A stretch of DNA of 64,000 bases from an uncultured Candidatus Saccharibacteria bacterium. Its GTDB lineage: Bacteria > Patescibacteriota > Minisyncoccia > Phycocordibacterales > UBA918. The stretch's first letter is position 1. Each line of letters starts with the position of its first letter. The stretch spans positions 208,621 to 272,620 of the forward strand of contig CAYGJY010000001.1 in assembly GCA_964350645.1 (NCBI GenBank). The letters are read 5' to 3'. Positions 13,550 to 50,809 of the stretch are shown in pieces. The notes under the pieces are model-generated. The model did no database searches. It was not told the origin of the DNA and worked only from the letters and a program-made list of their open reading frames with translations. The position numbers and the translations under genes are program-made.

Positions 13550-14563
13550 ATGAGGCGTTCATTTATCCCCAAAGTTGGTATTGATTTAGGTACCACTAAT
13601 GTATTGGTATTTATTCCGGGAGAGGGAATAGTTCTGAATGAGCCGTCAGTGGTTGCAGTTTCAAATGACAGTCAAGTCCTTGCGGTTGGAACTGAGGCTA
13701 AGCGTATGATTGGCCGCACGCCTGATAGTATTCGAGCCTATCGCCCTATGAAAGATGGCGTTATTGCCGACTATCGAGTGACTGAAGCTATGCTCCGATA
13801 TTTTCTCAGGAAAGCATTGCCACGATTTAATATTCTAAAACCAGAAGTGATGGTTTCGGTGCCGGCTGGTGTGAGTTCGACCGAAAAACGAGCAGTGGTA
13901 GAGGCGGCGATCAAAGCTGGTGCTCGCAATGCGTACGTTGTGAAGGAGCCGATTTTAGCAGCGATTGGCGCCGGTGTGCCGATTTATGAACCACAAGGTC
14001 ATATGATCGTTGATATAGGTGGGGGAACGATCGATGTGGCGGTAATTAGTCTAGGCGGAATTGTAGCTGCCAACTCAGTGAAGTGTGCTGGTAACAAGAT
14101 AGATGCAGCGATCATTGATTATATTAAGAAGACGCGGAATTTATCGATTGGTGAGAAGACAGCTGAGGAAGTGAAGATCACCATCGGTTCAGCTTTGCCG
14201 CTTGAAGAAGAATTGGTTATGGATATTAAAGGACGCGATCTACTGTCTGGCCTGCCACGCACGACTGAGGTGCGGACAAATGAGATTGTTCGAGCAATTA
14301 CTCGTGAGTTGCGTGACATGGTGAAGGCAATTAAAGATGTGTTTCAAGATACACCACCTGAACTTGCAGCAGATATTATTGATGACGGGATTATTATGAC
14401 CGGAGGGACTTCACAGTTACGCAATTTCCCTGAGTTGATCAAGCGTCGTACGGGAGTAAAAGCGAAGCTCGCTGACCAGGCACTCTTTTGTGTTGCTAAA
14501 GGTACCGGGATTGCTCTTGAGCACCTCGATACCTATAAGCGCACAGTGATGACGAAGCGGTAG
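13550..14563 (+). CDS. mreB: rod shape-determining protein MreB (paralog 1, detached from mreCD)
   Basis: Actin-fold phosphate-1 motif VGIDLGTTNVLV and full MreB colinearity. Confidence 0.85.
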   Translation: MRRSFIPKVGIDLGTTNVLVFIPGEGIVLNEPSVVAVSNDSQVLAVGTEAKRMIGRTPDSIRAYRPMKDGVIADYRVTEAMLRYFLRKALPRFNILKPEVMVSVPAGVSSTEKRAVVEAAIKAGARNAYVVKEPILAAIGAGVPIYEPQGHMIVDIGGGTIDVAVISLGGIVAANSVKCAGNKIDAAIIDYIKKTRNLSIGEKTAEEVKITIGSALPLEEELVMDIKGRDLLSGLPRTTEVRTNEIVRAITRELRDMVKAIKDVFQDTPPELAADIIDDGIIMTGGTSQLRNFPELIKRRTGVKAKLADQALFCVAKGTGIALEHLDTYKRTVMTKR

Positions 14564-14578
14564 TTGTATGAGAAGTAA

Positions 14579-14610
14579 AGCGCGACGGGGGATTTATCCC
14601 CCGCCGCGCT
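14579..14610. other. GC-rich 13-bp-stem hairpin between mreB and the ATPase gene
   Basis: agcgcgacggggga-ttta-tcccccgccgcgct, with no clear U-tract. Confidence 0.5.
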
Positions 14611-14647
14611 TTACCGTGCCGTCCTAAAGAGCGGTACTATATAAGTA

Positions 14648-17425: not shown

Positions 17426-17433
17426 TTTAGTGT

Positions 17434-19722
17434 ATGCCAAGGGAAAACGAACTTCATAGAGGCAATCAAGAGCGTGAACGATCGGATTACTCTATCGATG
17501 AAATGAAGAACATGATGCCGTATGACGAATTTTTCTGCTGGGTAGAAGAGGGGGACAGTAATGCTTTAAAGTACGGCGAAACCAATAATCAGTTTCGTAC
17601 ACCAGAGAACTTACGAGTGTATCTCACAGCTGCTTTTGGTCAGTTTATAAATAAACCAGAGGACGTTTATATTATAAGAAATGGTATCGCAACAGTCGAC
17701 GCTATTTTGCAAGGGCATAGAAATGCAGTAACCCAGAACGACAGAGACGTAATTAATGAGGCTGCGATGCGTCGATTGCAAGAATTTTGCCTGGAATTTG
17801 GCATTGTTGCTGAAGGATCTGAGGCAGTGGAAAACACACCAACCATTCCCGAGATACCAAAAGAGCCAGAAACGATTTCTCTCAAGGATTTTCAGTCAAT
17901 AGTTGAAGAAACAATTTGGAATATTGCTGTTGAAGAAGGTGGTCAGATAGATTTAAAACACCTGTCACAAACTCCGCTGTTTGTAAGACAAAAGGAAGCA
18001 CATCTAAACATTTTACAAGGTTTACTAAAACTTGGTGTCATTTCTTCCGTTGACCAGCCCGAAATCAATGCTGATGTTTTAGAAAAATTCAATACGAGAC
18101 TGGTAACTGAGTATTCCGAAAAAGATTCGTCACTCGAGGATGCATTGATAGAGATGACAGGAATTCAAGATGAGACAACTGTTCAGGCGGCTCATTCTGC
18201 CTGGCAAGAGTATTTTGCACAGTATTCTCACACACTCGAAGGTATTAATGGGCATATAGAAAAACACGCTGTGAACGTGGGTGCTGTGCGGTTTGAAGGA
18301 GAACCATACGTTAAAGACTGGGCTGATAAAGGTGAAATTGATGCGTTGCTACAATTTTATAAAACCAAAAAGAAAGAGGTAGTAAATAGAGCTAAACCAC
18401 AGAATATAGCAGTCTTTAAAAAAGGTACTCGGGTAGCCGGCATGGTAAAGAAAGTCGAAATGAATTTTGCCGACATTTCTTCAATTGAACCAGGTGCAAC
18501 TACTGAAGCTCGTCTAAAGCGTCTGTTTGGCAGTACTAATGAGTTGCTCAATGCTATAAGTATTGAATTTGAGAATCGAAAAGAAACTACAGCAGCTGTA
18601 AAAGAGATTTCAGATGAAACAGGAGACTTTACTGAAGCGTTTGATTTGCAAGTGAATCCTGAAACAAAAATCGGTGCCATTTATAAGCGGATGCGCGAGC
18701 TGCGTAAGCAAGTCAAGGTAGCGGCAGATACACTAGATATTGATACCTATTCTAAAGGAGCTAAGCGAATGAACAACAATGCATTGGATGGTATTAGATC
18801 TTTCCGAAAGAACTATGCTGAGCTGGCTGACTATTTAGCACATCGTGCAGCGGAATCTAATGATCGACAATTTGGACCACGAGAGACACCGCAATTTTCT
18901 GATGAACAAGTGGCGGAAATTCAAAAACGTTTAAATAAGCTGTTCGAATATGGTCAGCGTGTCATCGATGATGTTGATACAAAACTTGATAACCAAGCTC
19001 TTTCTGGTAGTTATGAACATTTCGTGTCTACATTTGATGATATCGAGGAAGACACTGGATCACCTTTTATTCCATATCAAGAAGAGTCTCAGGCGGAGAC
19101 AATCCCAAAAAATTCTGCCGAGATGCCGACCGCCAAGACGTTTGATGAGCAAAGGTTGTCACTACAATTACTTAACAACGAGCTATCTACTGTCTATGGG
19201 ACAGAAGTTGATTTTGAAAAAAAGATTGGTCCGCTATACCAAAAACAAACAAAAAGTTTTGGTCGCCAAGGGTCCAGTATTGCAGAGATGGATGTAAGAA
19301 CGTTTTTGAAGAAAAACTCGCCAGCTGATCCACTTGCTCAACTTATCCGCAAGTGGGAGCGCCAGACAGGTATTAATCCAGAGCAGGCAATAAGTGGTCG
19401 CTATGGAGGCTATACAACCCAGTCAGTAGAAGGATATTTACGAACAGCAGCTGGAGATATTACGTTAAGAGAAAGTGAAAATTTGAAGAGTGAAGGTTCA
19501 CAGCTAAAAATGAAAACAGCCGCTGAAGAGTTCAAAAAAATAAAAGTACCACCACTTATAAAAGAGAAGAAGAGGGATGTTGATTCAGAGGAATGGAGGA
19601 AAGAAGTTACAGTTCCTGCAGGAGTAAAAAATACTACTGCCTTTGCCTTAGGGAGGTTTGCAGCATTTGGTGCTAGTAAGATTCGTAATGCAGTAAAAAA
19701 TATTTTTGGTCGGACTAACTAA
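17434..19722 (+). CDS. hypothetical large acidic protein
   Basis: 762 aa, 8 nt after the ATPase gene; no motif recognised. Confidence 0.45.
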   Translation: MPRENELHRGNQERERSDYSIDEMKNMMPYDEFFCWVEEGDSNALKYGETNNQFRTPENLRVYLTAAFGQFINKPEDVYIIRNGIATVDAILQGHRNAVTQNDRDVINEAAMRRLQEFCLEFGIVAEGSEAVENTPTIPEIPKEPETISLKDFQSIVEETIWNIAVEEGGQIDLKHLSQTPLFVRQKEAHLNILQGLLKLGVISSVDQPEINADVLEKFNTRLVTEYSEKDSSLEDALIEMTGIQDETTVQAAHSAWQEYFAQYSHTLEGINGHIEKHAVNVGAVRFEGEPYVKDWADKGEIDALLQFYKTKKKEVVNRAKPQNIAVFKKGTRVAGMVKKVEMNFADISSIEPGATTEARLKRLFGSTNELLNAISIEFENRKETTAAVKEISDETGDFTEAFDLQVNPETKIGAIYKRMRELRKQVKVAADTLDIDTYSKGAKRMNNNALDGIRSFRKNYAELADYLAHRAAESNDRQFGPRETPQFSDEQVAEIQKRLNKLFEYGQRVIDDVDTKLDNQALSGSYEHFVSTFDDIEEDTGSPFIPYQEESQAETIPKNSAEMPTAKTFDEQRLSLQLLNNELSTVYGTEVDFEKKIGPLYQKQTKSFGRQGSSIAEMDVRTFLKKNSPADPLAQLIRKWERQTGINPEQAISGRYGGYTTQSVEGYLRTAAGDITLRESENLKSEGSQLKMKTAAEEFKKIKVPPLIKEKKRDVDSEEWRKEVTVPAGVKNTTAFALGRFAAFGASKIRNAVKNIFGRTN

Positions 19723-19761
19723 AGATACTCACAGTAATACGTACACTATATAAAACCAAAA

Positions 19762-21327
19762 GTGTTATTATTAAAGCAACGTATGGTGGATGCCCAGCAT
19801 AGTTCTTCAGGTGGTGGTTCTTCGGTGTCGATGACACGCTCTTTTGATGTGTCGGTCGAAGGCGATCTCTTAAAATTACTTCAGTTTATCCGTCGCGGAC
19901 CAGTGCCACAGATATTGCAAGCTGGTTTTCGTGATGCAGTCTTAGATTATTCTCAAACAAAAGATCCGACTCTGCTTGATGGATTAGTCGCTGAATTGAC
20001 AAAGCACAATGTAATAGTGCAGGCAGCTGGAGTAAATTTAGGACAACCAGTAATGGCAACACCAACACCTGTAACTGCTTCTTCAGCACAACCGATCGTC
20101 GCTAAGCAGCCGGCGATAGGTGCAAAACGCCCCCGACCAGTCTTTGGAGCCACTGCTCGAGTTAGCGATACTCAGGCTCCGTCTGAGTCAGTCAGCAAGC
20201 CGACCGCTGAACCTTCTGTGCCTGCACCGACACATACCGAAGTTAAAAAAGTTTCAGTAACTTCTGTTGAACCAGCTGTTCCCAATTCTGCTGCAGAAGA
20301 ACCTGTTGTTGTAGATGACACATCAGTCGCAGGTCAGACTGAGATTCGTAGTGAAGATGTAACTTTACCAGAAGCTCCCTCTGTTTCTGAAGTGGTGCCC
20401 GAAGTTTCATCCTCACCAGCAAATGCTGCTGATCCATTGACACGCATCAAAGAGATTAAGAAGTTGATTAATGAAAAGGTGGGTAATCCAGTTAATTTGA
20501 TTGATGCTAATAATGAAGTTGGACGCGAGTATATGAACGCTCTCCTGAATGCCATGAAAGTGATCAATGGCGGCACTCCTGATGAAGTAACACTTGCGAT
20601 GGATCGTCTTGAGAAGGCATTTGCAACTGTTGAAGAATCAATTTCTTCTGGTGAGACAGTAATTGGCAGTCTTCCTGCTACAACACCAGGCGTACCTCTT
20701 ACACCAGATGCACCTGCTGCGACAGCACCAGCAGCTGAACCGTCACCGGCTCCAGCAGTACCAGCGCAACCAGCCGATGCACCAATTTCAACTCCAGTCT
20801 CACCAGTATCTGCAACTCCTGCAGTGCCGCCAGTTCCTGTTGCACCACCTACTTCAGTGCCTCGGGCTGCTGCACGACCTACAACAACTCCAACGCAATC
20901 TGTAGCGGCTACATTAGCAGCGGATAATGCTTCAATCACATCACAAGCAGCCGCCAAAGCTGCAGAGCTTGCCAAAGCTGCAGAGTCAACCGCAAACGAT
21001 CCATTGCAGGCTGAGGCCATTACAGATGGGCTCAAGCAGCTTCTGGCTGAGTGGAAACTCTTTAAAGGTTCGGGTATTTTTGGTACTGGTCCAAGCGGAA
21101 TTGAAAGTGAACTGTACAAAACCTTGGCACCGCTCCCAATGGCTGCCGTGATAGCTAACCGTTTCGAAGGAGCAACACCTGAAGTTAAGCAGAGTATTGC
21201 CGACTATATGAACGGTTGGCGTTATGAACAAACGGTTGTTCACGAAATGAATGAAACTTTTGAACACTATCTCCGACGAGTAATTAAAGCCATTCTCGAT
21301 AGAAAAAATCCAACAACTGCGGCATAA
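19762..21327 (+). CDS. hypothetical protein with Pro/Ala/Thr-rich low-complexity linkers
   Basis: 521 aa; PAPAVPAQPADAP-type linkers between structured segments. Confidence 0.45.
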   Translation: MLLLKQRMVDAQHSSSGGGSSVSMTRSFDVSVEGDLLKLLQFIRRGPVPQILQAGFRDAVLDYSQTKDPTLLDGLVAELTKHNVIVQAAGVNLGQPVMATPTPVTASSAQPIVAKQPAIGAKRPRPVFGATARVSDTQAPSESVSKPTAEPSVPAPTHTEVKKVSVTSVEPAVPNSAAEEPVVVDDTSVAGQTEIRSEDVTLPEAPSVSEVVPEVSSSPANAADPLTRIKEIKKLINEKVGNPVNLIDANNEVGREYMNALLNAMKVINGGTPDEVTLAMDRLEKAFATVEESISSGETVIGSLPATTPGVPLTPDAPAATAPAAEPSPAPAVPAQPADAPISTPVSPVSATPAVPPVPVAPPTSVPRAAARPTTTPTQSVAATLAADNASITSQAAAKAAELAKAAESTANDPLQAEAITDGLKQLLAEWKLFKGSGIFGTGPSGIESELYKTLAPLPMAAVIANRFEGATPEVKQSIADYMNGWRYEQTVVHEMNETFEHYLRRVIKAILDRKNPTTAA

Positions 21328-21334
21328 TAAAGAC

Positions 21335-21952
21335 ATGACGCACGCGCGACTGTATATTGCTTCGACATATCAACTTGTACCAGAACTTGAATCACTCCTA
21401 CACCAGAGCACTGATGTAGAGCATTTTGTAGCAGAAAATTTTACTATTGCTGATGCCAGGATGTTATATAGTCGAGCTACTCTCCGGCCAGTTGAAGATT
21501 CATTACGGCAGTTTATTGTTTCTTTCGGCAGTATCACAAGCGAAGCGCAAAACGCACTATTAAAATTGTTTGAAGAGCCACCAGTAACGTCAGTATTTCA
21601 TATTGTTGTGGCTCGCGAAGATATGCTGTTGTCGACGGTGCGTTCACGATTGCAATTGGTCAGTACTGTCCACAGAGACCACGTGGTGTCTGACGTGTTT
21701 AAGGATTTTCAGCAAAGTACACTCAATGAACGTTTAGCAGCTGTCACTACGCGCACCAAGAATAAAGACCAGGCCTGGGCAGAAGCAATTGTTCTTGGTG
21801 CTGAACAAGTAATCCAGACTGATATCGCTAAGAAGGGTACAGAACTGCTCGAGACGGTTATATATATTCGACGCTATCTTGGTAAGCGGGGGGCCTCAAC
21901 TAAACTGTTATTAGAAGAATTAGCCCTTAGTATGCCGCCTGCGCAAGCCTAA
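21335..21952 (+). CDS. holB: DNA polymerase III delta' (HolB)-like, without P-loop
   Basis: NALLKLFEEPP and SRLQ (sensor) motifs; begins after the region where Walker A would lie. Confidence 0.5.
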   Translation: MTHARLYIASTYQLVPELESLLHQSTDVEHFVAENFTIADARMLYSRATLRPVEDSLRQFIVSFGSITSEAQNALLKLFEEPPVTSVFHIVVAREDMLLSTVRSRLQLVSTVHRDHVVSDVFKDFQQSTLNERLAAVTTRTKNKDQAWAEAIVLGAEQVIQTDIAKKGTELLETVIYIRRYLGKRGASTKLLLEELALSMPPAQA

Positions 21953-21979
21953 AAGGGTGTGGTACAATCACCACACTAA

Positions 21980-22531
21980 ATGCATATACATATGGATGAA
22001 CTAAAAACACGATTACAAGAATCAGTTTCCTGGCTGGGAGAGGCCTACGCAGGGATCAGGACTGGGCAAGCTGCTCCCGGACTGCTTGATGGTGTAAAGG
22101 TAGAAAATTATGGAACCCACATGCCAATCAACCAAGTGGGGAGTGTCGGGATTGAAGATGCCCGGACATTACGCATTTCGACCTGGGATGCTGGAGTCAT
22201 TCCGGCAGTTGAGAAAGCGATTCGCGACGCTGATCTTGGTGTGTCAGTTTCGACTGATTCAGCAGGTTTACGGATCTCATTTCCAGAATTGACTAGTGAA
22301 CGTCGAGGGCAGCTCTTAAAGCTCGCAAAGCAAAAACTAGAAGATGCTCGTGTCTCTGTTCGTAGTGCCCGAGACGAAATTATGAAAGATATCGATAAAG
22401 CAGAGAAAAGCGGCGACATTAGCGAAGATGAAAAATTTACGCAAAAAGAACAAGTACAGAAACTTGTTGATGACACTAATAAACAGCTGGAAGCAATTTT
22501 CACTAAAAAAGAGCAAGAACTTGCTGCTTAG
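21980..22531 (+). CDS. frr: ribosome recycling factor
   Basis: Full-length RRF colinearity. Confidence 0.9.
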   Translation: MHIHMDELKTRLQESVSWLGEAYAGIRTGQAAPGLLDGVKVENYGTHMPINQVGSVGIEDARTLRISTWDAGVIPAVEKAIRDADLGVSVSTDSAGLRISFPELTSERRGQLLKLAKQKLEDARVSVRSARDEIMKDIDKAEKSGDISEDEKFTQKEQVQKLVDDTNKQLEAIFTKKEQELAA

Positions 22532-22534
22532 CTT

Positions 22535-23632
22535 ATGACAGTTCTATTATTTCTTGGAGTTTTATTTGTCCTGATTTTGGTGCACGAATGGGGTCACTTT
22601 ATAGTCGCAAAGAAAAACGGTATCCGGGTTGATGAGTTTGGGATCGGTTTTCCACCAAAACTCTTTGGCATCAAAAAAGGTGAGACAGAGTATACCTTTA
22701 ACTTGTTACCCATTGGTGGCTTTGTAAAAATCTACGGTGAAAATGCCCAAGATGCCGCAGAAGATGCTGAGGGTGGGGAAGATATTTCTCGCTCATTTGT
22801 TGCCAAGTCAAAGTGGGCTCAAGCGGCGGTCTTGATTGCGGGTGTCACAATGAATATTTTGTTTGCCTGGTTTTTATTTATTCTAGTGTTTGCTATTGGT
22901 GTGCCAACCGCCGTTGATGAAGACGCTGCAGGGCCTGATGCTCGGTTGATTGTGTCAAACGTGTTGGCTGAAGGACCGGCAGCTGTAGCTGGTCTGCCTG
23001 CTGGAGCTGAGATTGTTTCGCTCACGAGTGGAGACGATAGCGATACTGATCTTACACCGTCATCCTTTAGTGACTTTACGACCAAACACGGAGAGCTCAC
23101 AATTGACTATAAGCTTGGAAATACTGTTGAAACTTTAGTACTTACTCCCGGTACTGGTGTACTTGAGTCTGATCCAGAGCGACCGGCGGTTGGAGTTGCT
23201 CTGGCACTTGTAGAAACCGTGCAGACACCGATTCATCTGGCAGTATACAAAGGACTGGTAACGACGCTTTCTGGTTTGAAAGACATTACGATTGGTCTTT
23301 CTTCATTGCTCTATGACACGGTGCGCGGTCAAGCAGATTTTTCCCAAGTCGCCGGGCCGGTCGGAATTGTTGGATTAGTGGGGGATGCGGCTGAATTTGG
23401 CTTTACCTCGCTCCTCATGTTTACTGCCTTTATCTCCCTCAACTTGGCAGTAATTAATATGCTTCCGTTCCCAGCCCTCGACGGTGGGCGGCTCGTGTTT
23501 GTAGCCGTCGAGAGCATTACTCGCCGCCCCATCAATCCAATCTGGGTTGCGCGTTTGAATCTTGTCGGGTTTGTGTTGTTAATTACTCTAATGTTGCTTG
23601 TCACCTACAACGACATCCTCAGAATCCTTTAA
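22535..23632 (+). CDS. rseP: RIP metalloprotease RseP (site-2 protease)
   Basis: HEWGH zinc motif in TM1, PDZ-like middle region, LDGG motif. Confidence 0.85.
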   Translation: MTVLLFLGVLFVLILVHEWGHFIVAKKNGIRVDEFGIGFPPKLFGIKKGETEYTFNLLPIGGFVKIYGENAQDAAEDAEGGEDISRSFVAKSKWAQAAVLIAGVTMNILFAWFLFILVFAIGVPTAVDEDAAGPDARLIVSNVLAEGPAAVAGLPAGAEIVSLTSGDDSDTDLTPSSFSDFTTKHGELTIDYKLGNTVETLVLTPGTGVLESDPERPAVGVALALVETVQTPIHLAVYKGLVTTLSGLKDITIGLSSLLYDTVRGQADFSQVAGPVGIVGLVGDAAEFGFTSLLMFTAFISLNLAVINMLPFPALDGGRLVFVAVESITRRPINPIWVARLNLVGFVLLITLMLLVTYNDILRIL

Positions 23633-23722
23633 AATAAAAAAGAAAACAGCCTCCACCACAGATTAGGTATATGGAACTTCGGCACAAGCCGTTTCCTTTC
23701 CTTATCTAAGTGAAAGCTGTTG

Positions 23723-23757
23723 CCCAGACGGAAGGTTTTTCCGTCTGGGGTATTTTT
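23723..23757. terminator. bidirectional terminator between rseP and the island
   Basis: cccagacggaagg-ttttt-ccgtctgggg followed by a T-run. Confidence 0.75.
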
Positions 23758-23770
23758 GTGGTTGGGATGA

Positions 23771-25846
23771 TCAGTCCCAGACCAGATTGGGCAGGTAGGA
23801 CCGGAACTCGTCGATCCACTCAAGCACCGACTCTGGCAGCCAACCCAGGTATACCAGGCCAGCCACCAAAACGACGATGCAGAGCGGGGCAACGAGCCAG
23901 GTCCAGCGCCGGTGCGTGACCAGGTTGCCTGTCTCGTCCCTCTTGTTGAGGGGGACGAGACAGGCGAACGCCAGAGCCAGGAACGCCGGGGAAAGATCGA
24001 GGACGATCTGCACCACGGCAATCATCGGCATCTCCTGCCAGTGCTTCAGGAGCGCGAAGAACGGATCCAGCGGGAAGAACTCGGGAACGATCCCTTGTTC
24101 CAGCGCCCGAAACTCGTCTCCACCACCCATGCGTTCGACTAAGGTCTCTCGCTGTTCTTTGGCACGGCTTTCGACACCTTCGATGATCCCCTGAAGCGAC
24201 GCCTGAAGCGACGCCACCTGAGCTCGAATCTGACCCCTCCTACCGGACTGACAGGATTGCCAGCCGGTGAAGAAGGCGTCGTCTTTGACCCCCTCTAGCT
24301 GTTGGTCCAGAATCCGTAGGACCGCCAGCGGTGAGTTGGCTTCGAGGGTGACGATCCGTTCGCGGAGTTGCTTGAACTCCACGCCGATCTGGCCCATATC
24401 GTCGATGAAGAGCACGCCGTCCGTCGGATTGGTGATCCGGTCACGAACCCGTTTGAGGTCCGCAATCAGGGACGGGTCCGAGAGGTTCTGGTTGCCCTCG
24501 ATGGTGGCGATGATCCGCAAGAGGTCACGCCTTTTCCCGCTGTAGAAGCGAGAGAGGTCGCCTTCACCCCGGCCGCAGACACTGCCTTGGCTGATCTCGA
24601 CGTTATAGAAGTCCTCAAAACCTCCAGCCAGGAAGCGCAGCTGATCAAGCGACGCCAGTTCTGCTTCACGCTGGGAGGCTGCCAGTTGGGCGGCCACGTC
24701 GAGCAGGTTGGTGTAGCGACGATGATCGATCTGCATCGCTTTTTCACCGCCGACACCGACTATGCCCAAGCCAGTCGAGAGGCCTATGGTGATGGGCACG
24801 ACGATGGCGAATCCGACTATGACCGCCCAGATACGCCAGAACACAGTGGTGGTGGTGATCATCAGCCGATATCCGGGGAGCCATAATCCCCAAATGATCA
24901 GCGACGCAGCCCCTGAGCAGAGAGATGAGATCGCCCATCGGTAGAACCACGAACGGTTGTCGTCCATGACCAGCCATTCAAAGCCGATCGCGGTGGTGAT
25001 CGTCGAGACGGTCATCGCCACCGCCGTGATCCAAATGAAGGTCGAAGCGAGGTCGGCTCCGGGGAGCGTGGACAGATATTCAGCCCTTGCAATCCGCCGG
25101 TCCAGAGTCCTGGCGTGGACGGCGGCTTTTTCATTTGACCGCCGTTCCCACCATTCCGCCACGCTCCGGCTGAACGCAGTCACCAGTCGCCCGCAGGCGA
25201 TCGCACTCAGGTAGATCAGATACACGATCACGCTGAGAACGATCGTCAGGAAGAGGGCGGCTAGCGCTTTGATCCACAGGTCATCAGGCAGCTGAAGCGC
25301 CGCCTTCAGACCGGTGAAGTCTTCGCCGAAGATGGTGAGGTAGGCCGTTAGGCCTCCGGTGATGACGCAGATCGTCCGCGCCCAACCGAAGCGATTGCTC
25401 GCCAGGTAGACGGCGACGGCGAAGATGATGAGACCGACCGTCCCCACCGTGAAGTGGAGCCAGTGCTGACCCGCTCCGGGCCAATTCCAGAACCACAGCG
25501 AGGCTGGGTCCTGGTGATCGAGCATCGCGCCCTGTAACGCCACTCCGCAGAGCAGCCAGACCAGGAGCGGCCCGACGACGATCCCGACATTCCGCCAGCC
25601 GAATCGGCCAGCGAAGGTCGCGAGCGCCAGGTAGGCCACTGCGAGGGCGGCAGAACCGCCCAGGAAGTAGAGCCAGTGTTCCCCGGCGCCCTCCCAGTTA
25701 AAGGGCCAGAACGACCCGTTGGTGGAATTGGTCCAGGCTCTTTGGATCATCAGGCCTGTGAAGGCCCATGCGGCAAAGATGCCGATGCCCGTCAGGGCGT
25801 GGGCGAGTGTATTGCGGCCGAAGCCGCCGTTTTGGTTCATGGACAT
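23771..25846 (-). CDS. hypothetical polytopic membrane protein, high-GC, with an internal Trp-rich duplication
   Basis: 691 aa at about 60% GC; repeated WxFNWxGAGxHWL…RFGW modules; central coiled-coil-like soluble part; C-terminal TM. Confidence 0.6.
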   Translation of the reverse strand: MSMNQNGGFGRNTLAHALTGIGIFAAWAFTGLMIQRAWTNSTNGSFWPFNWEGAGEHWLYFLGGSAALAVAYLALATFAGRFGWRNVGIVVGPLLVWLLCGVALQGAMLDHQDPASLWFWNWPGAGQHWLHFTVGTVGLIIFAVAVYLASNRFGWARTICVITGGLTAYLTIFGEDFTGLKAALQLPDDLWIKALAALFLTIVLSVIVYLIYLSAIACGRLVTAFSRSVAEWWERRSNEKAAVHARTLDRRIARAEYLSTLPGADLASTFIWITAVAMTVSTITTAIGFEWLVMDDNRSWFYRWAISSLCSGAASLIIWGLWLPGYRLMITTTTVFWRIWAVIVGFAIVVPITIGLSTGLGIVGVGGEKAMQIDHRRYTNLLDVAAQLAASQREAELASLDQLRFLAGGFEDFYNVEISQGSVCGRGEGDLSRFYSGKRRDLLRIIATIEGNQNLSDPSLIADLKRVRDRITNPTDGVLFIDDMGQIGVEFKQLRERIVTLEANSPLAVLRILDQQLEGVKDDAFFTGWQSCQSGRRGQIRAQVASLQASLQGIIEGVESRAKEQRETLVERMGGGDEFRALEQGIVPEFFPLDPFFALLKHWQEMPMIAVVQIVLDLSPAFLALAFACLVPLNKRDETGNLVTHRRWTWLVAPLCIVVLVAGLVYLGWLPESVLEWIDEFRSYLPNLVWD

Positions 25847-25874
25847 TATGTCCCTTTCTTTTACTGGGTTTAAT

Positions 25875-26117
25875 TTACTGGTTACGTCTGGTCGCGTTCA
25901 CCACGAAATTAGCGCGATTGCGGCCATTGATCTCCTTGATGTCACTCAGGAAAACCCGAGAACCCACTTTGGGCAGGTTGTTTGCAGTGCCTTTCCAGGC
26001 TGTAAGAGAGAAAGTGACTCCACTCCCATAGCCAACGGCACTGGTGACGAAATACATCTGCGGAGTTCCCGCCTGACATATTTTTGTCACCGTTGCGAGC
26101 ACCTGGTCAGTGCTCAT
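25875..26117 (-). CDS. hypothetical small protein (high-GC island)
   Basis: 81 aa from the ATG preceded by GGAGGA; the longer ORF-track form (26174) lacks an RBS. Confidence 0.4.
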   Translation of the reverse strand: MSTDQVLATVTKICQAGTPQMYFVTSAVGYGSGVTFSLTAWKGTANNLPKVGSRVFLSDIKEINGRNRANFVVNATRRNQ

Positions 26118-26162
26118 AGTTGATCCTCCGCTGTTATTTGTTGACAAAGAGCATACTTTAAA

Positions 26163-26191
26163 ATTATAACACAATTAATATAAAAAATCAA
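26163..26191 (-). promoter_or_regulatory. sigma70-like promoter (TTGATT-17-TGnTATAAT) inside the island
   Basis: Read on the minus strand in the AT-rich spacer upstream of 25875..26117. Confidence 0.45.
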
Positions 26192-26287
26192 GTATATAGT
26201 CTACTTTTAGCGCTTGCAATCTGTTCATTTTGCCAAAGGATAGTTTGGCGGACTGCGTCAGTATTTAGATACATATTTATATAGGGG

Positions 26288-26355
26288 CAGAAAAGAAGAA
26301 AGGCCTCGGCGTGGAGGAGGACAGGTCGAAACCTTTCCTCCCCACGGCTCGAGGC
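26288..26355 (-). terminator. rho-independent terminator of the 26363..26770 gene
   Basis: About 19-bp imperfect stem (gcctcggcgtggaggagga / tcctccccacggctcgaggc), then a U-rich tract on the minus strand. Confidence 0.6.
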
Positions 26356-26362
26356 CGAGGAC

Positions 26363-26770
26363 TCACCGCTTCATGGGCGGCGGCGAGGTTGTTCTCCACA
26401 ATGCCGCGACCATGACGGTCATCACCATGAAGAACGTGGATAACACCCCCCTGAACATTCCGCGCATCTCTGGCGGGACACCATCGAGCGGCGTCAGGAG
26501 GATCGCCAGAGTGGCGAGCGCGCAGAAGATCGTCCCCACGCCCCACGATCTCCCCTCATACCGGATCGGATTCTCGCAGAAAGCCCAGACCGGCCTGATG
26601 AAGATCAGGTACGTGATGTGGGCGATCCCGTAGATCGTCAGCGCGAGGTGACGGAACACCTCGCTGAAGTGGTAGGAGGTATTCTTGGCGGTGTCGATGA
26701 TCTTGTTCATTTTCAAAACCGATACGTTTTCACGCCCGGCTCCCTGATTTTGCGCGGCCCCAGTGGCCAC
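26363..26770 (-). CDS. hypothetical small membrane protein (high-GC island)
   Basis: 135-aa ORF with 3-4 hydrophobic helices; the start may be the internal Met (MNKIID…). Confidence 0.45.
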   Translation of the reverse strand: MATGAAQNQGAGRENVSVLKMNKIIDTAKNTSYHFSEVFRHLALTIYGIAHITYLIFIRPVWAFCENPIRYEGRSWGVGTIFCALATLAILLTPLDGVPPEMRGMFRGVLSTFFMVMTVMVAALWRTTSPPPMKR

Positions 26771-26964
26771 GCTCTACTTATCACTATAACACAAAATTAC
26801 TAAAAAAGCAAGTTTTGGCCTTGAATTATGGGCTGATTTTGTTTGCTAAAACAGCCAAATTCGTTAGAATAGCAGGACTATGAAGTCTTTCTACGCAACC
26901 TTGTTTCCCGTGTGGTATAGCTAATTTTCTCTCCCTTTTTATTAAAAAATCATTATTTTGAACT

Positions 26965-28218
26965 ATGCGACAATCACATTTATTTACCAAAACCCTCAAA
27001 GAAGCGCCGTCTGGCGAAGAAGCGAAGAATGCTCAGTTATTGATTCGAGCTGGCTATGTTCATAAAGAAATGGCCGGCGTCTATGCTTGGTTACCGCTAG
27101 GTCTGCGGGTACAAGAAAAGATTAAACAAATCGTCCGAGAAGAAATGAACGCCATTGGCTGTCAGGAACTCATCATGACCTCGCTGCAATCAAAAGAGCT
27201 CTGGGAGTCGACTGGTCGCTGGGATGACAGCGTAGTTGATATTTGGTTTAAGTCTGAACTGAAGGCTGGTGGGGAGGTTGCTCTGGCGTGGAGTCATGAA
27301 GAGCCGATCGGCAACATGATGAAACGGTACATCCAGAGTTATAAGGATTTACCGATCTACGTCTATCAATTTCAAAATAAACTCCGCAACGAAGTGCGCG
27401 CCAAGAGTGGCGTCATGCGTGGTCGGGAGTTTATTATGAAAGATGCGTATAGTTTTTGTATCGGCGAAGAAGATCATACCGCTATTTATGAAGCCATGAA
27501 AGTGGCGTACATGAAAGTATTCGAACGTTGTGGTATTGGCGATGACACATTCATTACCTTTGCGTCAGGGGGAGCGTTTACGAAGTTTTCTCATGAGTTT
27601 CAGACTATCTGTGAAGCGGGTGAGGATGTGAGCTTTATCAATCGAGACAAACATGTGGCCGTCAATGAGGAAGTGATGGGTGAAGAGGCCTTAGCTGAAC
27701 TGGGTGTAACAAAAGACGAACTAGAAGAAGTAAAAACTGCTGAGGTTGGGAATATCTTTAACTTCGGTCGACAGAAAGCCGAAGACCTTGGTTTGACTTT
27801 CAAAAATGAAGCTGGTGAAGACACCGCTGTTTGGATGGGTTCATACGGTATCGGGATCACTCGATTGCCAGGTGTGTTGGTGGAGAAGTTTGCTGACGAC
27901 AAAGGCATTGTCTGGCCGGAAGCGGTGGCGCCGTTTAAGGTGCACCTGGTGGCGCTTAATCTTGATGATGCAGTAATCAAAGATTATGCCGATGGCATCT
28001 ATAGCGCTATGAATAGCCGTGGAATCGAAGTTCTCTATGATGACCGGATTGAAGCTCGTCCGGGAGAAAAGTTCGCTGACTCAGATTTGATAGGCATGCC
28101 GTACCGCGTTGTAGTAAGTAAGAAGACTAAAGAGGAAGGGAAGTTTGAAGTGGTAGTACGAGCTACTGGAGAAGTGAAGTATTTGACAGAGGAGGAACTG
28201 TACGCAGATTTTGCTTAG
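26965..28218 (+). CDS. proS: prolyl-tRNA synthetase (short form)
   Basis: Class II aaRS motifs, ProRS colinearity, 417 aa. Confidence 0.85.
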   Translation: MRQSHLFTKTLKEAPSGEEAKNAQLLIRAGYVHKEMAGVYAWLPLGLRVQEKIKQIVREEMNAIGCQELIMTSLQSKELWESTGRWDDSVVDIWFKSELKAGGEVALAWSHEEPIGNMMKRYIQSYKDLPIYVYQFQNKLRNEVRAKSGVMRGREFIMKDAYSFCIGEEDHTAIYEAMKVAYMKVFERCGIGDDTFITFASGGAFTKFSHEFQTICEAGEDVSFINRDKHVAVNEEVMGEEALAELGVTKDELEEVKTAEVGNIFNFGRQKAEDLGLTFKNEAGEDTAVWMGSYGIGITRLPGVLVEKFADDKGIVWPEAVAPFKVHLVALNLDDAVIKDYADGIYSAMNSRGIEVLYDDRIEARPGEKFADSDLIGMPYRVVVSKKTKEEGKFEVVVRATGEVKYLTEEELYADFA

Positions 28219-28320
28219 TACAGTATGCACTTACTCACTTCGAGATAAACTAGAGATAAGTAAGTCGTGTTTGTGTAGAGGGGGGGGTTATAGAACAGCC
28301 GCCAAAATTCCGAAAGAATT

Positions 28321-29433
28321 TTGGCGGCTGTTTCCATTTGTAGTATGATACGAGGCACTATGTCGAGCTTCTCGCGCTATTTTGACAAATTTTTAGGAAC
28401 GATTTCGACCGATATCGGGATTGATCTTGGAACTGCCAATACTCTCGTCTATGTTAAAGGCCGGGGAATTGTTCTCTCGGAGCCAACTATCGTAGCGGTC
28501 AATAAGAAAACTGGTCAGTTAGTGGCAGTCGGCAATGAAGCTAAGTCGATGCTCGGTCGAACTCCTGGTCATATTGAAGTGATCAGGCCACTCGTCGAGG
28601 GTGTTATTTCAGACTTTGAAATTACTGAAGAAATGCTCGCATATCTCATTAACAAAGTGCGTAGCGAAATGCGGCAGATTATCTCACCACGAGTGTTAAT
28701 TGGGGTACCATGCGGCATTACCAATGTAGAAATGCGTGCTGCGCGTGATGCTGCTAAGAACGCCGGTGCCCGAGATGTGTTCTTGATTGAAGAACCCATG
28801 GCAGCAGCTATCGGAGCAAAGCTACCGATCCATAAAGCCGTTGGTAGTATGATTATTGATGTGGGTGGCGGTACGGCCAACATCGCCGTTATTTCACTTG
28901 GTGGAATTGTCACTTCAGAAAACTTACGCACTGCTGGAGATCATCTCAACAGTGCGATCGCAAGCTATATCCGCGATCAATTTAAAGTATTGGTGGGGGA
29001 GAAGACGGCCGAAGAAGCGAAGATTAAGCTTGCGTCAATCGTGCATCCCGATGAAGTAAAAGAATTGGTTGTGCGTGGTCGCGACGTTGTTACTGGTCTT
29101 CCGCGCGAAGTCGTCATTACTGATGCAGATATTCGGGAAGCTATCTCACCTTTGGTTGACTCAATTGTTGATACGGTTCGGTCCGTCCTCGAAAAAACCC
29201 CACCTGAAGTATTGGCAGATATTATGCAGCGGGGCATTCATCTTTCTGGAGGAGGCGCCCTTATCCCGGGCTTTGCGGCACTGTTAGAGGAGGTTTTGCA
29301 AGTACCGGTGATTATTGTGCCGGATCCACTTCGTGCAGTTGTGCGTGGAACTGGTATTGTATTAGAGAATCTTGATGACTATGTTGAAATTCTCATCGAC
29401 AACGAAGGTGAGCTCACGCCGCACCTCTCATAA
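28321..29433 (+). CDS. mreB: rod shape-determining protein MreB (paralog 2, in the mreBCD cluster)
   Basis: IGIDLGTANTLVYVKG; the true start is probably an internal Met (MSSFSRYF…). Confidence 0.85.
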   Translation: MAAVSICSMIRGTMSSFSRYFDKFLGTISTDIGIDLGTANTLVYVKGRGIVLSEPTIVAVNKKTGQLVAVGNEAKSMLGRTPGHIEVIRPLVEGVISDFEITEEMLAYLINKVRSEMRQIISPRVLIGVPCGITNVEMRAARDAAKNAGARDVFLIEEPMAAAIGAKLPIHKAVGSMIIDVGGGTANIAVISLGGIVTSENLRTAGDHLNSAIASYIRDQFKVLVGEKTAEEAKIKLASIVHPDEVKELVVRGRDVVTGLPREVVITDADIREAISPLVDSIVDTVRSVLEKTPPEVLADIMQRGIHLSGGGALIPGFAALLEEVLQVPVIIVPDPLRAVVRGTGIVLENLDDYVEILIDNEGELTPHLS

Positions 29434-30346
29434 GAAACGCTTGCGCTCTATTATTCTGCTTGGGGGAGGACTCCTGGTTGTCCTTTTGTTACTGCCACGT
29501 GTGTTTGGCTTTGTGTCGTCATTGGTATTTATGCCCCTGGCGATTACTGAGTCAGCCACGGCACGAATCAGTGCGCTGTTGCCAGCGTACTTCACTGATC
29601 GTCATGAGTTAATTACACAAATTAATCAACTGGAAGCTCGGATCGCTCAAGAATCAAGTGGTGCAAGTACGGTAGTAACATTGCAAAGAGAAAATCAAGC
29701 GCTGCGAGCTCTGCTTGGTGATGAAACAGATCAACGTATCGCTGCCGGAGTGATTGGACGACCGACGGTAACTCCTTATGATGTCTTGGTAATTGACCAG
29801 GGTAGTAGCTCCGGAATTGTCGAGGCAGCACCAGTGTATGTGGGTAGGGATCAGGTGATTGGCTTTGTCGAGCGAGTCTATGAACATAGCGCGGTTGTCG
29901 TCCTTGCGACGACTCCTGGGTATGCATCAACTGTGTATATTTATGGTCCAAACATCTATACAACCGCTCGCGGATTAGGCGGTGGTGTGCTTGAAGTTAG
30001 CGTGCCGCAAGGAATCGAGATTGCTGAGGATGATGTTGTGGTATTGCCATCACTTAGTTCTGGTGTGTATGGCACACTCAGTGTTATTGAATCAATCGCG
30101 TCAGAGCCAGAACAACGCGGCTACGTGACATCCCAAGTACCACTGCACAGTTTACGTTTTGTTAGTGTAGGTCGAAAGCCGCTTGAAGTGATCTCTTTTG
30201 ACAGCGCCCGTGAGGTGGTGGCTGAGGCACGTGAAGCATTATTACGAATCCCGGTGCCAGCGGGGGTGTTGGTCGATTTTCAAGAAGATACTGGCACTAC
30301 CACTGCCAGTACGACAGAAGCGGCTACTACTTCGCCTGCCGTATGA
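29372..30346 (+). CDS. mreC: rod shape-determining protein MreC
   Basis: N-terminal TM, coiled coil (QINQLEARIAQE…RENQALRALLG), then beta-domain; the start probably lies downstream of 29372. Confidence 0.7.
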   Translation: MMTMLKFSSTTKVSSRRTSHKKRLRSIILLGGGLLVVLLLLPRVFGFVSSLVFMPLAITESATARISALLPAYFTDRHELITQINQLEARIAQESSGASTVVTLQRENQALRALLGDETDQRIAAGVIGRPTVTPYDVLVIDQGSSSGIVEAAPVYVGRDQVIGFVERVYEHSAVVVLATTPGYASTVYIYGPNIYTTARGLGGGVLEVSVPQGIEIAEDDVVVLPSLSSGVYGTLSVIESIASEPEQRGYVTSQVPLHSLRFVSVGRKPLEVISFDSAREVVAEAREALLRIPVPAGVLVDFQEDTGTTTASTTEAATTSPAV

Positions 30347-30603
30347 GATTTTTATTATTTTGCATCTTGGTTATCTTGAGTACTTTGCTGCCTTGGCCGG
30401 GGCTATTGTTATTGGCAATAGGCTATGCGCTCTATGTTTCTGCAGCGTATGAGTTGATTGTCCTAGGAGGACTAATTGATGCGTACTATGGAGTAGCAGT
30501 TGTTGTGCCGTACTATACGCTCGTCGCTGTTGCAATCGTATTGTGTATTGAACTTATCAAACCACTCCTTAGTGTTTATACTGATGAGTACAGTCTTCGT
30601 TAA
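30343..30603 (+). CDS. mreD: MreD-like small membrane protein
   Basis: 86 aa, 3 TM, in the canonical position between mreC and PBP2; shorter than a typical MreD. Confidence 0.4.
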   Translation: MRFLLFCILVILSTLLPWPGLLLLAIGYALYVSAAYELIVLGGLIDAYYGVAVVVPYYTLVAVAIVLCIELIKPLLSVYTDEYSLR

Positions 30604-30605
30604 CT

Positions 30606-32309
30606 ATGTTTTTTCGCCGCAAATCAAAAAATCAGGTTGAGTTCGATGAGATTTTTCTTGATGCGTCCAATTTGCCTTCATTCAACCAGGGTCGTCTCGA
30701 AGGAAAAATGGAATTACCAATCACCAGGCGCAATGTACTTTTAATTGGAGGTCTGTTTGTTATTGTTGCACTATTGTTTTTGAGCAAATTATTTACTCTG
30801 CAAGTGATTCATGGGGCAACGTACCGGGAACAAAGTGAAGCCAATCGAATTAATGAAGGAGTGATCATCGCTGAACGGGGTGTGGTCTATGATCGAAATA
30901 ACGAATTAGTTGCTTGGAATGAACATGACTATACAGATGAATATGCGTTTCCCGTACGGGCGTATTCAGACCGCTTGGGTATTGGACAGCTGATTGGGTA
31001 TGTGAGTTATCCGCAGAAAGATAGTCGAGGTTTTTATTTCCGTACCGAGTACATCGGTCGTAACGGAGTCGAAGGGTCTTATCATGCTATGTTGAGTGGT
31101 CAAAACGGCCAGCGATTAGTTGAAGTTGATGCACATGGGTCAGTGGTGTCTGAACATGCGGTTGAAGAACCGGTGCCGGGAGGAGAGGTGCATTTGTCGA
31201 TCGATGCTGAGCTCTCAGAGGCGATGTACAACATCATTGCGACATCAACTGCTCAGTCAGGTTCGCGTAGTGGTGCCGGGGCAATTATGGACGTGCGAAC
31301 TGGTGAGATTATTGCAATGACTAGTTTTCCATCGTATGACCCGGAAGTGATGGCGGACGGTGATGACGTCGCTTTGATTAATCAATACAACGCTGATGAG
31401 CGATTTCCGTTTCTCAATAAAGTGATTGCAGGTGCCTATACACCCGGATCAATCGTGAAGCCATTTGTGGCGTACGGGGCATTGGCAGAAAACATTATTA
31501 GTCCAGAGAAAACCATTGTTAGTACTGGAGAAATCGTTATTCCAAACCCTTATAACCCATCTAACCCATCGATCTTCCGTGACTGGCGAGCTCATGGAAA
31601 AATGACCATGCGTGAAGCAATTGCATTCTCTTCAAACGTCTACTTTTATATTATCGGTGGTGGTTTTTTGGATCAGCCTGGGTTAGGGATTACTAAAATG
31701 CATGAGTATTTTAGTTTGTTTGGTTTTGGCAAAGAATCAGGCATCAATCTCGATAATGAACAAACGGGTACGGTGCCAAACCCTGAATGGAAGCGTGAAT
31801 TGTTCGATGATGACTGGCGTTTGGGGGATACGTATTTCACTGCTATTGGTCAATATGGTTTTCAGGTGACGCCACTTCAGATGCTGGTAGCCTATGGGGC
31901 GCTCGCCAATGGAGGGAAGTTATTTGTGCCACATATTGAAAAAGACGTCGTAGGAGAGTCGACAGATCTTGGTCTTGATCCAGCAAAGTTGTCCGTGGTG
32001 CAAGAGGGGATGCGTAAGACAGTTATTCTTGATGGTGGTACTGCCCGGTCACTTGAGAAACCCTATGTCAACATCGCGGCTAAGTCTGGTACTGCTGAGC
32101 TCGACTTCGCTAAGGCTCGGTTAAACACGTGGGCTGCTGGTTACTGGCCGTATGAAGACCCTCAGTATGCATTTATTATTCTGATGGAAAACGCACCGTA
32201 CGCTAATCGTTTAGGGGGTACGCGCGTGATGGGTGATGTAATGGATTGGATCAATGTACATAGACCTGAGTATTTAGGGGAAGATGTTGAAACAACAGAG
32301 CTCGAATAG
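30606..32309 (+). CDS. mrdA: penicillin-binding protein 2 (elongasome transpeptidase)
   Basis: SxxK (GSIVKPF), SxN (FSSNVYF), and KSGTA motifs. Confidence 0.8.
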   Translation: MFFRRKSKNQVEFDEIFLDASNLPSFNQGRLEGKMELPITRRNVLLIGGLFVIVALLFLSKLFTLQVIHGATYREQSEANRINEGVIIAERGVVYDRNNELVAWNEHDYTDEYAFPVRAYSDRLGIGQLIGYVSYPQKDSRGFYFRTEYIGRNGVEGSYHAMLSGQNGQRLVEVDAHGSVVSEHAVEEPVPGGEVHLSIDAELSEAMYNIIATSTAQSGSRSGAGAIMDVRTGEIIAMTSFPSYDPEVMADGDDVALINQYNADERFPFLNKVIAGAYTPGSIVKPFVAYGALAENIISPEKTIVSTGEIVIPNPYNPSNPSIFRDWRAHGKMTMREAIAFSSNVYFYIIGGGFLDQPGLGITKMHEYFSLFGFGKESGINLDNEQTGTVPNPEWKRELFDDDWRLGDTYFTAIGQYGFQVTPLQMLVAYGALANGGKLFVPHIEKDVVGESTDLGLDPAKLSVVQEGMRKTVILDGGTARSLEKPYVNIAAKSGTAELDFAKARLNTWAAGYWPYEDPQYAFIILMENAPYANRLGGTRVMGDVMDWINVHRPEYLGEDVETTELE

Positions 32310-32326
32310 GCATTTTTATACACACG

Positions 32327-32354
32327 TTGACCCGCTCGGCATTGTGCGTATAAT
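32327..32354 (+). promoter_or_regulatory. sigma70-like promoter TTGACC-16-TATAAT upstream of greA
   Basis: Read directly. Confidence 0.55.
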
Positions 32355-50718: not shown

Positions 50719-50809
50719 TGTGGTAAATGTATCACAAAAACAACCAAAATGAGGCTATTTTCTCTTCCTTAATTCGAACCTTATCGAGTGCTCGAACTAG
50801 CTCTCTAAT

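Follow-up and report, generated by a model that had tools for sequence, protein, structure and literature searches.

We analyzed a 64,000-nt stretch of contig CAYGJY010000001.1 (the window), from an uncultured Candidatus Saccharibacteria bacterium, and focused on the interval between the core genes rseP and proS. An earlier note, made from the sequence alone, had described a GC-rich island of three genes at this position. We refer to the GC-rich DNA as the islet and to its genes, in the order in which they follow rseP, as A, B, and C. The islet is physically real and is foreign in composition to the genome that carries it. The locus contains the following features, with coordinates given in the window.

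22535..23632, plus strand: rseP (site-2 protease), the left core flank; Pfam Peptidase_M50, E 1.4e-58.
23617..26951, no strand: strain-specific variable segment; blastn homology to L102, a conspecific strain, ends at 23616 and resumes at 26952.
23723..23749, plus strand: intrinsic terminator after rseP, with a 12-bp stem and then GTATTTTTGT, directly next to the gene A stop codon.
23771..25846, minus strand: gene A, a polytopic membrane protein of 691 aa (689 aa from the second ATG, as in the database call); GC content at third codon positions (GC3) 0.77.
23927..23965, no strand: inverted repeat inside gene A, 17 nt with 16/17 bases complementary and a 5-nt loop.
25875..26117, minus strand: gene B, a soluble protein of 80 aa with no hydrophobic span; GGAGGA ribosome-binding site (RBS) six bases before the ATG.
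26191-26163, minus strand: promoter of the B-A unit, TTGATT, 17 nt, TATAAT, with an upstream TG; 10/12 consensus matches.
~26360-26290, minus strand: intrinsic terminator after gene C, a long GC-rich hairpin with a T-rich tail, read directly from the sequence.
26363..26710 (or to 26770), minus strand: gene C, 115 aa from an ATG or 135 aa from a GTG at 26770; start uncertain.
26813-26783, minus strand: gene C promoter, TTGCTT, 17 nt, TATAGT, with an upstream TG.
26843..26870, plus strand: candidate proS promoter, TTGCTA, 16 nt, TAGAAT, divergent from the gene C promoter.
26965..28218, plus strand: proS (prolyl-tRNA synthetase), the right core flank; Pfam tRNA-synt_2b and HGTP_anticodon.

In 1-kb bins, GC content was 0.59 to 0.61 at 24 to 26 kb, compared to 0.37 to 0.51 in every other bin of the window. 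A 200-nt profile placed the islet edges at approximately 23.75 and 26.75 kb and revealed an AT-rich dip inside the islet (GC 0.345 at 26.1 to 26.3 kb). Total GC was 0.582 for the islet (23.76 to 26.78 kb) and 0.448 for the remaining window, and the high-GC island of the earlier note is thus confirmed at 58% GC versus 45% elsewhere, together with aberrant GC3. Gene A has a GC3 of 0.770, gene B of 0.585, and gene C of 0.862 in its 115-aa form or 0.816 in its 135-aa form; across the 60 other window open reading frames (ORFs) of >=100 aa that formed the comparison set, GC3 was 0.27 to 0.53. The tetranucleotide deviation, normalized for base composition, was 0.286 for the islet versus 0.186 +/- 0.025 in 3-kb windows, or ~4 standard deviations over the window mean. 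Flanks and islet therefore differ in codon usage and in tetranucleotide signature, rather than sharing the uniform signature that the earlier note had named as the observation to set against an island. The order of codon positions in gene A is GC3 > GC1 > GC2, and gene C has a GC3 far above its GC1 and GC2, which supports the minus-strand reading frames. Of six islet ORFs in alternative frames, five of them plus-strand and the sixth minus-strand, none had a match in Pfam.

Two Logan contigs, from the single-run assemblies ERR3534981 and ERR3534985, carry the exact protein A. The first (13.2 kb read of a 29-kb contig) corresponds to window positions 13771 to 26999 and the second (3.5 kb) to positions 23467 to 26999, both with 0 mismatches, and each of them crosses both islet junctions. 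Because two single-run assemblies give both joins without a mismatch, the islet does not appear to be chimeric, and the broken junction support that would betray an assembly artifact was not seen. A chimera, in which assembly or binning joined a high-GC fragment of another organism into the contig, is in our judgment extremely unlikely. Composition does change abruptly at both islet edges, and both Logan contigs stop near an edge, at 26999, with one also stopping at 23467. However, contigs that end where co-occurring strains regain identity are the expected result of an assembly-graph bubble around a polymorphic allele; one of the two contigs runs 10 kb into the left flank, the promoters of the islet are in the style of neighboring lineages, and the gene C promoter is homologous to one in L102. 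The exact B and C proteins are on record only in Logan gene calls and not from an NCBI source, so that genes B and C may be unannotated in the deposited genome.

We examined the rseP-proS interval on the contigs of RseP homologues; a scan of genome contigs with ProS gave only 34 to 45% identical proteins from unrelated phyla. The nearest RseP homologues are 66 to 77% identical to that of the window, and the named ones are labeled Candidatus Paceibacterota or Kaiserbacteria, with one labeled Acidimicrobiales. The organism itself is a Paceibacteria/Kaiserbacteria-like bacterium. The gene order on the relatives' contigs is holB, frr, rseP, proS, mreB, mreC, PBP2. The content of the slot between rseP and proS, with the RseP identity to the window, is as follows.

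L083, RseP 77%: empty, 22-nt gap.
L088, RseP 69%: empty, 116 nt.
L090, RseP 68%: empty, 131 nt.
P0007 contig, RseP 73%: probably empty.
L084, RseP 71%: a 218-aa gene on the minus strand.
L085, RseP 71%: an AAA_33 gene.
L086 and L087, RseP 70%: two paralogous genes (290 and 282 aa) and a 58-aa gene.
L089, RseP 71%: a 266-aa gene.
L091 to L093, RseP 66%: a 94-aa gene.

Given the empty slots in some relatives and the cargo in others, we conclude that the adjacency of rseP and proS is ancestral and that the gap is a recurrent cargo slot. The two genes are adjacent in L083, L088, L090, and probably the P0007 contig, which agrees with the earlier view that an insert splits an ancestral gene pair. 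Unrelated cargo occupies the gap in six other lineages. By blastp and phmmer, the cargo of L084 to L086 and L102 has no similarity to A, B, or C (the cargo of L089 and L091 was not compared by sequence). The A-B-C islet is absent from every relative examined, including the strain with 97% identical flanks; the three genes are thus not a shared possession of the relatives at this locus, which is the opposite of what the earlier note had named as refuting an insertion. Of its claim of an insertion at the junction, the foreign insert holds and the single insertion site does not, the locus being a recurrent variable slot.

A second RseP in the same 90% cluster led to the L102 contig (run ERR3534979). 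This contig is 97.3% identical to window positions 15552 to 23616 (8.1 kb) and 96.9% identical to positions 26952 to 32331 (5.4 kb); between them, the 3.3 kb of the window is replaced by 1.6 kb of unrelated DNA (L102 8083 to 9723). The alignable part of the variable segment is ~90 nt at ~75% identity, a by-eye estimate from a mean column identity of 74% in a 273-column alignment, and comprises the cargo promoter and the divergent candidate proS promoter. Two conspecific alleles have thus been seen, that of the window and that of L102, and the empty slots lie among more distant relatives. The L102 allele carries a 155-aa multi-span membrane gene (GC3 0.72) as its second cargo gene, in addition to the following features.

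L102 8133-8774, minus strand: Y1 transposase-like gene, 213 aa; Pfam PF01797, E 3e-8.
L102 8108-8126 and 8795-8813: palindromes TTGGGGGTCAGACCCCCAA, two identical 19-nt copies bracketing the Y1 gene.

Identity between the window and L102 is reduced near the junction, at 91% in the last 300 nt of rseP and 87% around the proS start. Codons 301 to 366 of rseP differ by 20 synonymous and 2 nonsynonymous substitutions, compared to 2 changes in total in codons 151 to 300, and the last 16 codons alone hold 10 synonymous and 0 nonsynonymous substitutions. In proS, codons 1 to 100 hold 23 synonymous and 3 nonsynonymous substitutions, compared to 6 changes in codons 101 to 250. As delimited by these substitutions, a diverged recombination tract covers ~66 codons at the end of rseP and ~100 at the start of proS. 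For the replacement flexible genomic islands of aquatic prokaryotes, Lopez-Perez, Martin-Cuadrado, and Rodriguez-Valera (2014; PMC4033161) describe substitutions that peak at the island boundaries and are mostly synonymous. Synonymous peaks at the rseP and proS edges point to allele replacement via the flanks, rather than site-specific insertion, as the latest event, and there is good support for the reading that this most recent event would have been homologous recombination through rseP and proS.

We also considered direct insertion by a mobile element (IS200/IS605-like or a repetitive extragenic palindromic [REP]-associated tyrosine transposase) in place of allele replacement. The Y1 transposase-like gene between identical palindromes in the L102 allele speaks for such a process and shows that mobile DNA does visit the rseP-proS slot; the best NCBIfam match of its protein is the REP-associated tyrosine transposase model, at 29 bits versus a cutoff of 80. 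In contrast, the islet in the window lacks a transposase-like gene, any copy of the palindrome (<=3 mismatches), and bracketing terminal direct or inverted repeats, and an insertion would not produce the synonymous divergence that reaches the coding ends of rseP and proS. We therefore think direct insertion unlikely and retain allele replacement as the account of the most recent event.

High GC marks the slot cargo of five lineages (the window, L102, L086, L089, and L091), with AT-rich spacers and promoters. GC3 is 0.77 for the L089 cargo (versus 0.48), 0.74 for that of L091 (versus 0.42 to 0.51), and 0.69 and 0.56 for that of L086 (versus 0.37 to 0.45); the cargo of L084 and L085 shows no GC enrichment. 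We scanned 10 cargo proteins of the relatives for N-terminal or multiple hydrophobic spans, which predict a membrane-bound or secreted protein, and 8 have them. Nine of the 10 are encoded at the rseP-proS junction, and seven of these have such spans, as does one protein encoded by a GC-rich gene at another locus (L094). Two lack them, namely the L085 AAA_33 protein and the L102 transposase-like protein.

GC-rich cargo in five lineages, at a locus that recombines, could point to a locus-specific force, and A, B, and C could then be old resident genes that relatives have lost repeatedly; some local effect, for instance, a recombination hotspot with GC-biased gene conversion, would have made them GC-rich. 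Several observations make this very unlikely. The cargo sets that we compared (the window, L102, and L084 to L086) are unrelated to one another and so do not descend from a single ancestral set. The ends of rseP and proS that recombine belong to genes of ordinary overall GC3 (0.43 to 0.47), which argues against GC-biased gene conversion, and the cargo of L084 and L085 is not enriched in GC. Finally, the amino-acid composition of A is that of a high-GC proteome, with four times more arginine than lysine, and its relatives reside in high-GC genomes.

Word-indexed homologue searches with A and B returned only A and B themselves. We rejected the idea that A is a true orphan after an exhaustive HMMER search among 1.84 billion representatives found 17 remote homologues, the best 37% identical at E 3e-89; at E <= 0.001, the family counts 18 representatives, including A itself. 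The family core corresponds to ~aa 260 to 640 of A and contains the motifs TTAIGF..DP, SLIIW, FGxIGVGGTE, CGxGxGxL..FY, FFxGWxxCQ, and PxFxPLxPFWAV..Y..PGYxALQxALDxSP. Neither A nor 15 homologues had a significant match among curated families (Pfam-A, NCBIfam, and PDB sequences). Judging by these searches, A belongs to a rare family that is named in none of the three. Searches of phages and plasmids (tblastn, blastn) and of viral contigs gave no match for A, C, or the whole islet.

Because the 16-sequence family alignment was too divergent for locus scans, we used an 8-sequence subset for that purpose. Seven metagenome loci carry A-family members on contigs of 60 to 64% GC; these proteins are 25 to 28% identical to A (one short partial match, 34%), and the GC3 of each A-family gene equals that of its neighbors. 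At one of these loci (L099), the neighbors encode FabI, FabB/F, Fur, a KdsB-type cytidylyltransferase, prephenate dehydratase, and cytochrome c. Given the matching GC3 and this housekeeping context, the high-GC homologues are probably native to the chromosome of a diderm, which would probably be proteobacterial. The speculation that the donor was actinobacterial is not supported, since the native high-GC homologues stand beside diderm-like genes (FabI, KdsB-type, and cytochrome c). In three of the four longer high-GC loci (L096, L097, and L099), a divergent gene of ~400 aa adjoins the A-family gene. The copy at L099:6162-7355 belongs to the TMEM43 family (PF07787, E 5e-74), and those of L096 and L097 are its equivalents by sequence similarity only; this neighborhood suggests a functional link between the A family and its TMEM43-family neighbor. 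Overall, there is good support, from sequence comparison, for an ultimate origin of A outside the lineage, presumably in a high-GC gene pool.

The closest homologue of A lies on the L094 contig. Directly upstream of it is an 84-aa gene whose product is 33% identical to B (blastp E 3e-5; phmmer E 3.7e-4), which makes B-A a conserved module, and the L094 module is somewhat GC-enriched relative to its neighbors. The same contig carries a gene for a 146-aa signal-peptide orphan with a GC3 of 0.71, compared to 0.43 to 0.55 for its neighbors, and this gene has a promoter in the same style (TTGACTTTTT ... TGTTATAAT). GC-rich, self-promoted envelope genes (L094:2622-3062 and L094:4948-7006) are thus not limited to the rseP-proS slot.

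Taking these lines of evidence together, we consider it likely that the rseP-proS interval is a strain-variable cargo slot and that the window carries a 3.3-kb allele of foreign composition that recombined in via the flanks, its genes having come earlier from outside the lineage. The interval from the rseP stop to the proS start would act as such a slot in a Paceibacteria/Kaiserbacteria-like lineage of the Candidate Phyla Radiation (CPR). The genes would first have been acquired from outside this lineage, in the case of A from a family otherwise native to high-GC chromosomes, and homologous recombination through the conserved flanks would then have brought the allele from a diverged relative. 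The allele consists of two self-contained units opposite to the core operon, one being promoter-C-terminator and the other promoter-B-A. Because the insert breaks the run from rseP to proS, rseP would end at its own terminator, and proS would be read from the promoter divergent to that of C.

The signals on which this arrangement depends could be located individually. The TTGATT-17-TGnTATAAT promoter described in the earlier note lies at 26191-26163 on the minus strand, and terminator hairpins lie at ~26360-26290 after gene C and at 23723-23749 after rseP. The gene C terminator was not listed by a simple hairpin scanner, as its stem-loop exceeds the limits of the scanner. The gene C promoter resembles the B-A promoter (72% identity over 36 nt). 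Expression of the insert from host-style signals, as read in the earlier note, is supported as a prediction, the style of the promoters being the lineage's consensus. The element of L102 that resembles the proS promoter aligns with the window's candidate, and a TAGAAT-type element upstream of proS is also found in relatives without cargo. Positional homology of promoters is limited to the gene C promoter and the L102 cargo promoter.

We considered and discarded similar promoters as the mark of a common mobile cassette. The same style (TTGAC/T-TTTTT ... TGTTATAAT) occurs on cargo and on other genes in several relatives, and a style common across relatives is a consensus promoter of the lineage, not a cassette mark. 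An Rfam scan of the islet with a permissive cutoff returned nothing beyond chance matches of hairpins to models of animal microRNAs. As a separate observation, the proS leader (~100 nt; window 26871-26964) keeps three short elements in most of the relatives compared (L085, L086, L088 to L091, and L102): TATGAA, a small CCC-N4-5-GGG hairpin ~60 to 70 nt before the ATG, and TAATTATT near the start. The leader had no match in Rfam, and RNAalifold gave no consensus structure from what was a poor alignment.

Protein A contains at least 9 hydrophobic spans. The tandem Trp-rich module noted earlier at its N terminus is a genuine duplication, with an alignment score of 125 compared to 30 +/- 6 in shuffled sequences. 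The copies share only 53% nucleotide identity, which indicates that the duplication is old. Arginine accounts for 6.4% of residues and lysine for 1.6%, and this fourfold excess fits a long history at high GC. The single-sequence AlphaFold2 model of A was unusable (predicted local distance difference test [pLDDT] 44.7), and we took the model built from the 16-sequence family alignment instead, which has a pLDDT of 76 overall and ~90 over aa 270 to 640. The model is all-helical, with a 64-residue helix (335 to 398) that extends out of the membrane. Strongly positive loops are located at aa 226 to 268 and aa 635 to 646, and the helical-bundle domain at ~aa 368 to 605 is predicted to be extracytoplasmic, a topology that is self-consistent by the positive-inside rule.

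C424 and C532 of A are conserved in 12 of the 16 aligned family sequences. Of the four exceptions, two are the most distant family members, which have lost both cysteines together, and two have a truncation or frameshift close to C532. This pattern suggests a C424-C532 disulfide, which would fit the outside location of the domain. Fold searches with A gave generic helical-bundle matches only, none of them in Foldseek at E <= 0.001. Tweety homologues and the four-helix-bundle sensor domains of TorS, PilJ, and McpZ have transmembrane helices that continue into an extracellular bundle, but the resemblance to A is one of shape only: sequence identity is 4 to 10%, and designed helical bundles score as well. 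Unlike the sensor proteins compared, A has no kinase or signaling output domain. The 17-nt inverted repeat inside gene A falls where the C terminus of A leaves the family pattern, with an extra hydrophobic span from ~aa 647.

Gene B ends 28 nt upstream of gene A, which makes cotranscription of the two probable. The earlier note had described B as an 81-aa protein with a perfect GGAGGA RBS; the RBS is confirmed, and the length is 80 aa. For C, which it had described as a 135-aa membrane protein, the hydrophobic character stands (2 to 3 spans), and a length of 115 aa is more likely. No homologue of C was found: its cluster is a singleton, and it matched nothing in Pfam, PADLOC, PHROGs, NCBIfam, viral contigs, or plasmids.

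The islet, being a small operon that varies between strains, has its own promoters, and combines a membrane protein with a small partner, could be an antiphage defense or toxin-immunity module, and strain-variable slots often carry defense genes. We searched for such a module and regard it as rather improbable. None of the three proteins has a match in PADLOC, PHROGs, or Pfam (PADLOC-DB 2.0 gave no defense-model match for A, B, or C at E <= 1), and no nuclease, ATPase, or toxin-like domain was found in them. In addition, the distant relatives of A lie in conserved housekeeping neighborhoods near a TMEM43-family gene and not in defense islands. Within the reading of the locus as a strain-variable slot, we propose, with low confidence, that A may display a disulfide-stabilized helical bundle outside the cell, with B as a small cytoplasmic partner and C as a small membrane protein. 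With similarly low confidence, the slot might serve to vary the cell surface between strains, for example, toward phages or a partner cell, rather than to supply a metabolic trait; this role is proposed because nearly all slot cargo in the relatives is membrane-bound or secreted.

Several points weigh against the proposed history and function of the islet. No integrase, transposase, tRNA gene, or flanking direct repeat is present in the window islet. Its spacers are AT-rich (32 to 41% GC) and its promoters are strong and in low-GC style, unlike what would be expected of a freshly imported high-GC fragment. The nearest homologue of A (37%) sits in a contig of 51% GC, and the high-GC homologues are only 25 to 28% identical to A. 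The GC3 of 0.77 is undecayed, although decay would be expected if B-A had long resided in mid-GC genomes. The Logan contigs, which are independent assemblies from separate runs and not samples of a different population, may share reads with the deposited genome. The functional reading, for its part, draws on topology prediction and cargo statistics only.

The locus provides a clean example from the CPR of two alleles with 97% identical flanks and a recombination signature at the boundaries, and slot occupancy can be traced in relatives whose RseP identity ranges from 66% to over 90%. Little documentation exists of strain-level gene flux in the CPR, since a single metagenome bin is the source of most of its genomes. 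The analysis also uncovers a membrane-protein family that is rare and has a conserved small partner, and the recurrent GC-richness of the cargo could bear on the source of new surface genes in reduced genomes. A bolder version, which we consider doubtful, makes the gap in this Paceibacteria clade a dedicated expression slot that has its own divergent promoter and has taken up GC-rich envelope genes time after time, all from a single type of high-GC partner. The cargo of five lineages does exceed its genome in GC by far, and the cargo sets compared have no sequence relationship. If the cargo did come from the hosts on which such ultra-small bacteria live, the slot would record host-to-epibiont gene flow and could help identify which hosts uncultivated CPR lineages have; in that case, B and A would form a new surface module of two proteins.

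Elsewhere in the window, the stretch 49738-50884 holds a 326-aa minus-strand ORF with the lowest composition of the window (GC 0.352, GC3 0.272), next to tRNA-Glu(CTC) at 50810-50884; this stretch may be a second, AT-rich accessory region. A 521-aa Pro/Ala/Ser-rich protein at 19762-21327 has no Pfam match and a GC3 of 0.297, the third-lowest of 62 ORFs, and its length ranges from 469 to 636 aa among relatives. Window positions 20652-20933 are only 88% identical between the two conspecific strains. The block at 13550-19722 comprises another MreB-like gene (337 aa) and, after it, genes for a 925-aa DUF87/DUF8128 protein that faintly matches type-IV-secretion ATPases and for a 762-aa protein without a Pfam match; this block is kept upstream of holB in several relatives.

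Among known systems, the replacement flexible genomic islands of PMC4033161 share with the rseP-proS slot a fixed site between core genes that holds different, nonhomologous genes in strains of one species. They also share the synonymous boundary peaks that indicate homologous recombination. The cargo of such islands encodes exposed cell structures; at the rseP-proS slot, A, C, and most of the relatives' cargo proteins scanned have predicted hydrophobic spans or signal-like N termini, and no recognizable surface-structure genes are present. The rseP-proS slot is very small (1 to 3 genes, 0.3 to 3.3 kb), unlike the larger replacement islands. Replacement flexible islands are known as multi-gene glycosylation or flagellar clusters. 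The rseP-proS cargo consists of GC-rich, orphan-like proteins and not of recognizable surface-polysaccharide genes, and the slot is empty in some relatives, so that it also behaves as an additive site. Replacement islands are present in all strains of a species; here, the two conspecific alleles seen both carry cargo, and the empty slots belong to more distant relatives.

The islet resembles classical tRNA-linked, integrase-bearing islands in its atypical composition and codon use, its sporadic distribution, and its accessory genes. Unlike them, it lacks an integrase, a tRNA target, direct repeats, and any mobility gene (the only tRNA gene of the window lies at 50.8 kb), and it is GC-rich relative to its host, whereas classical islands are AT-rich. 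The L102 Y1 gene between identical palindromes matches the typical arrangement of a REP-associated tyrosine transposase with REP palindromes, but the L102 protein falls below the NCBIfam cutoff and only two palindrome copies were seen. In the window, tblastn found nothing of the L102 Y1 element below E 1, and no palindrome was found within 3 mismatches. An integron cassette array is not matched either, given that each unit of the islet has its own promoter; Pfam detected no integrase domain in the islet proteins, rseP, or proS, and the unit ends share no imperfect palindromes. By these comparisons, the islet is a small, horizontally acquired flexible genomic island, ordinary in its class and unusual in its content.

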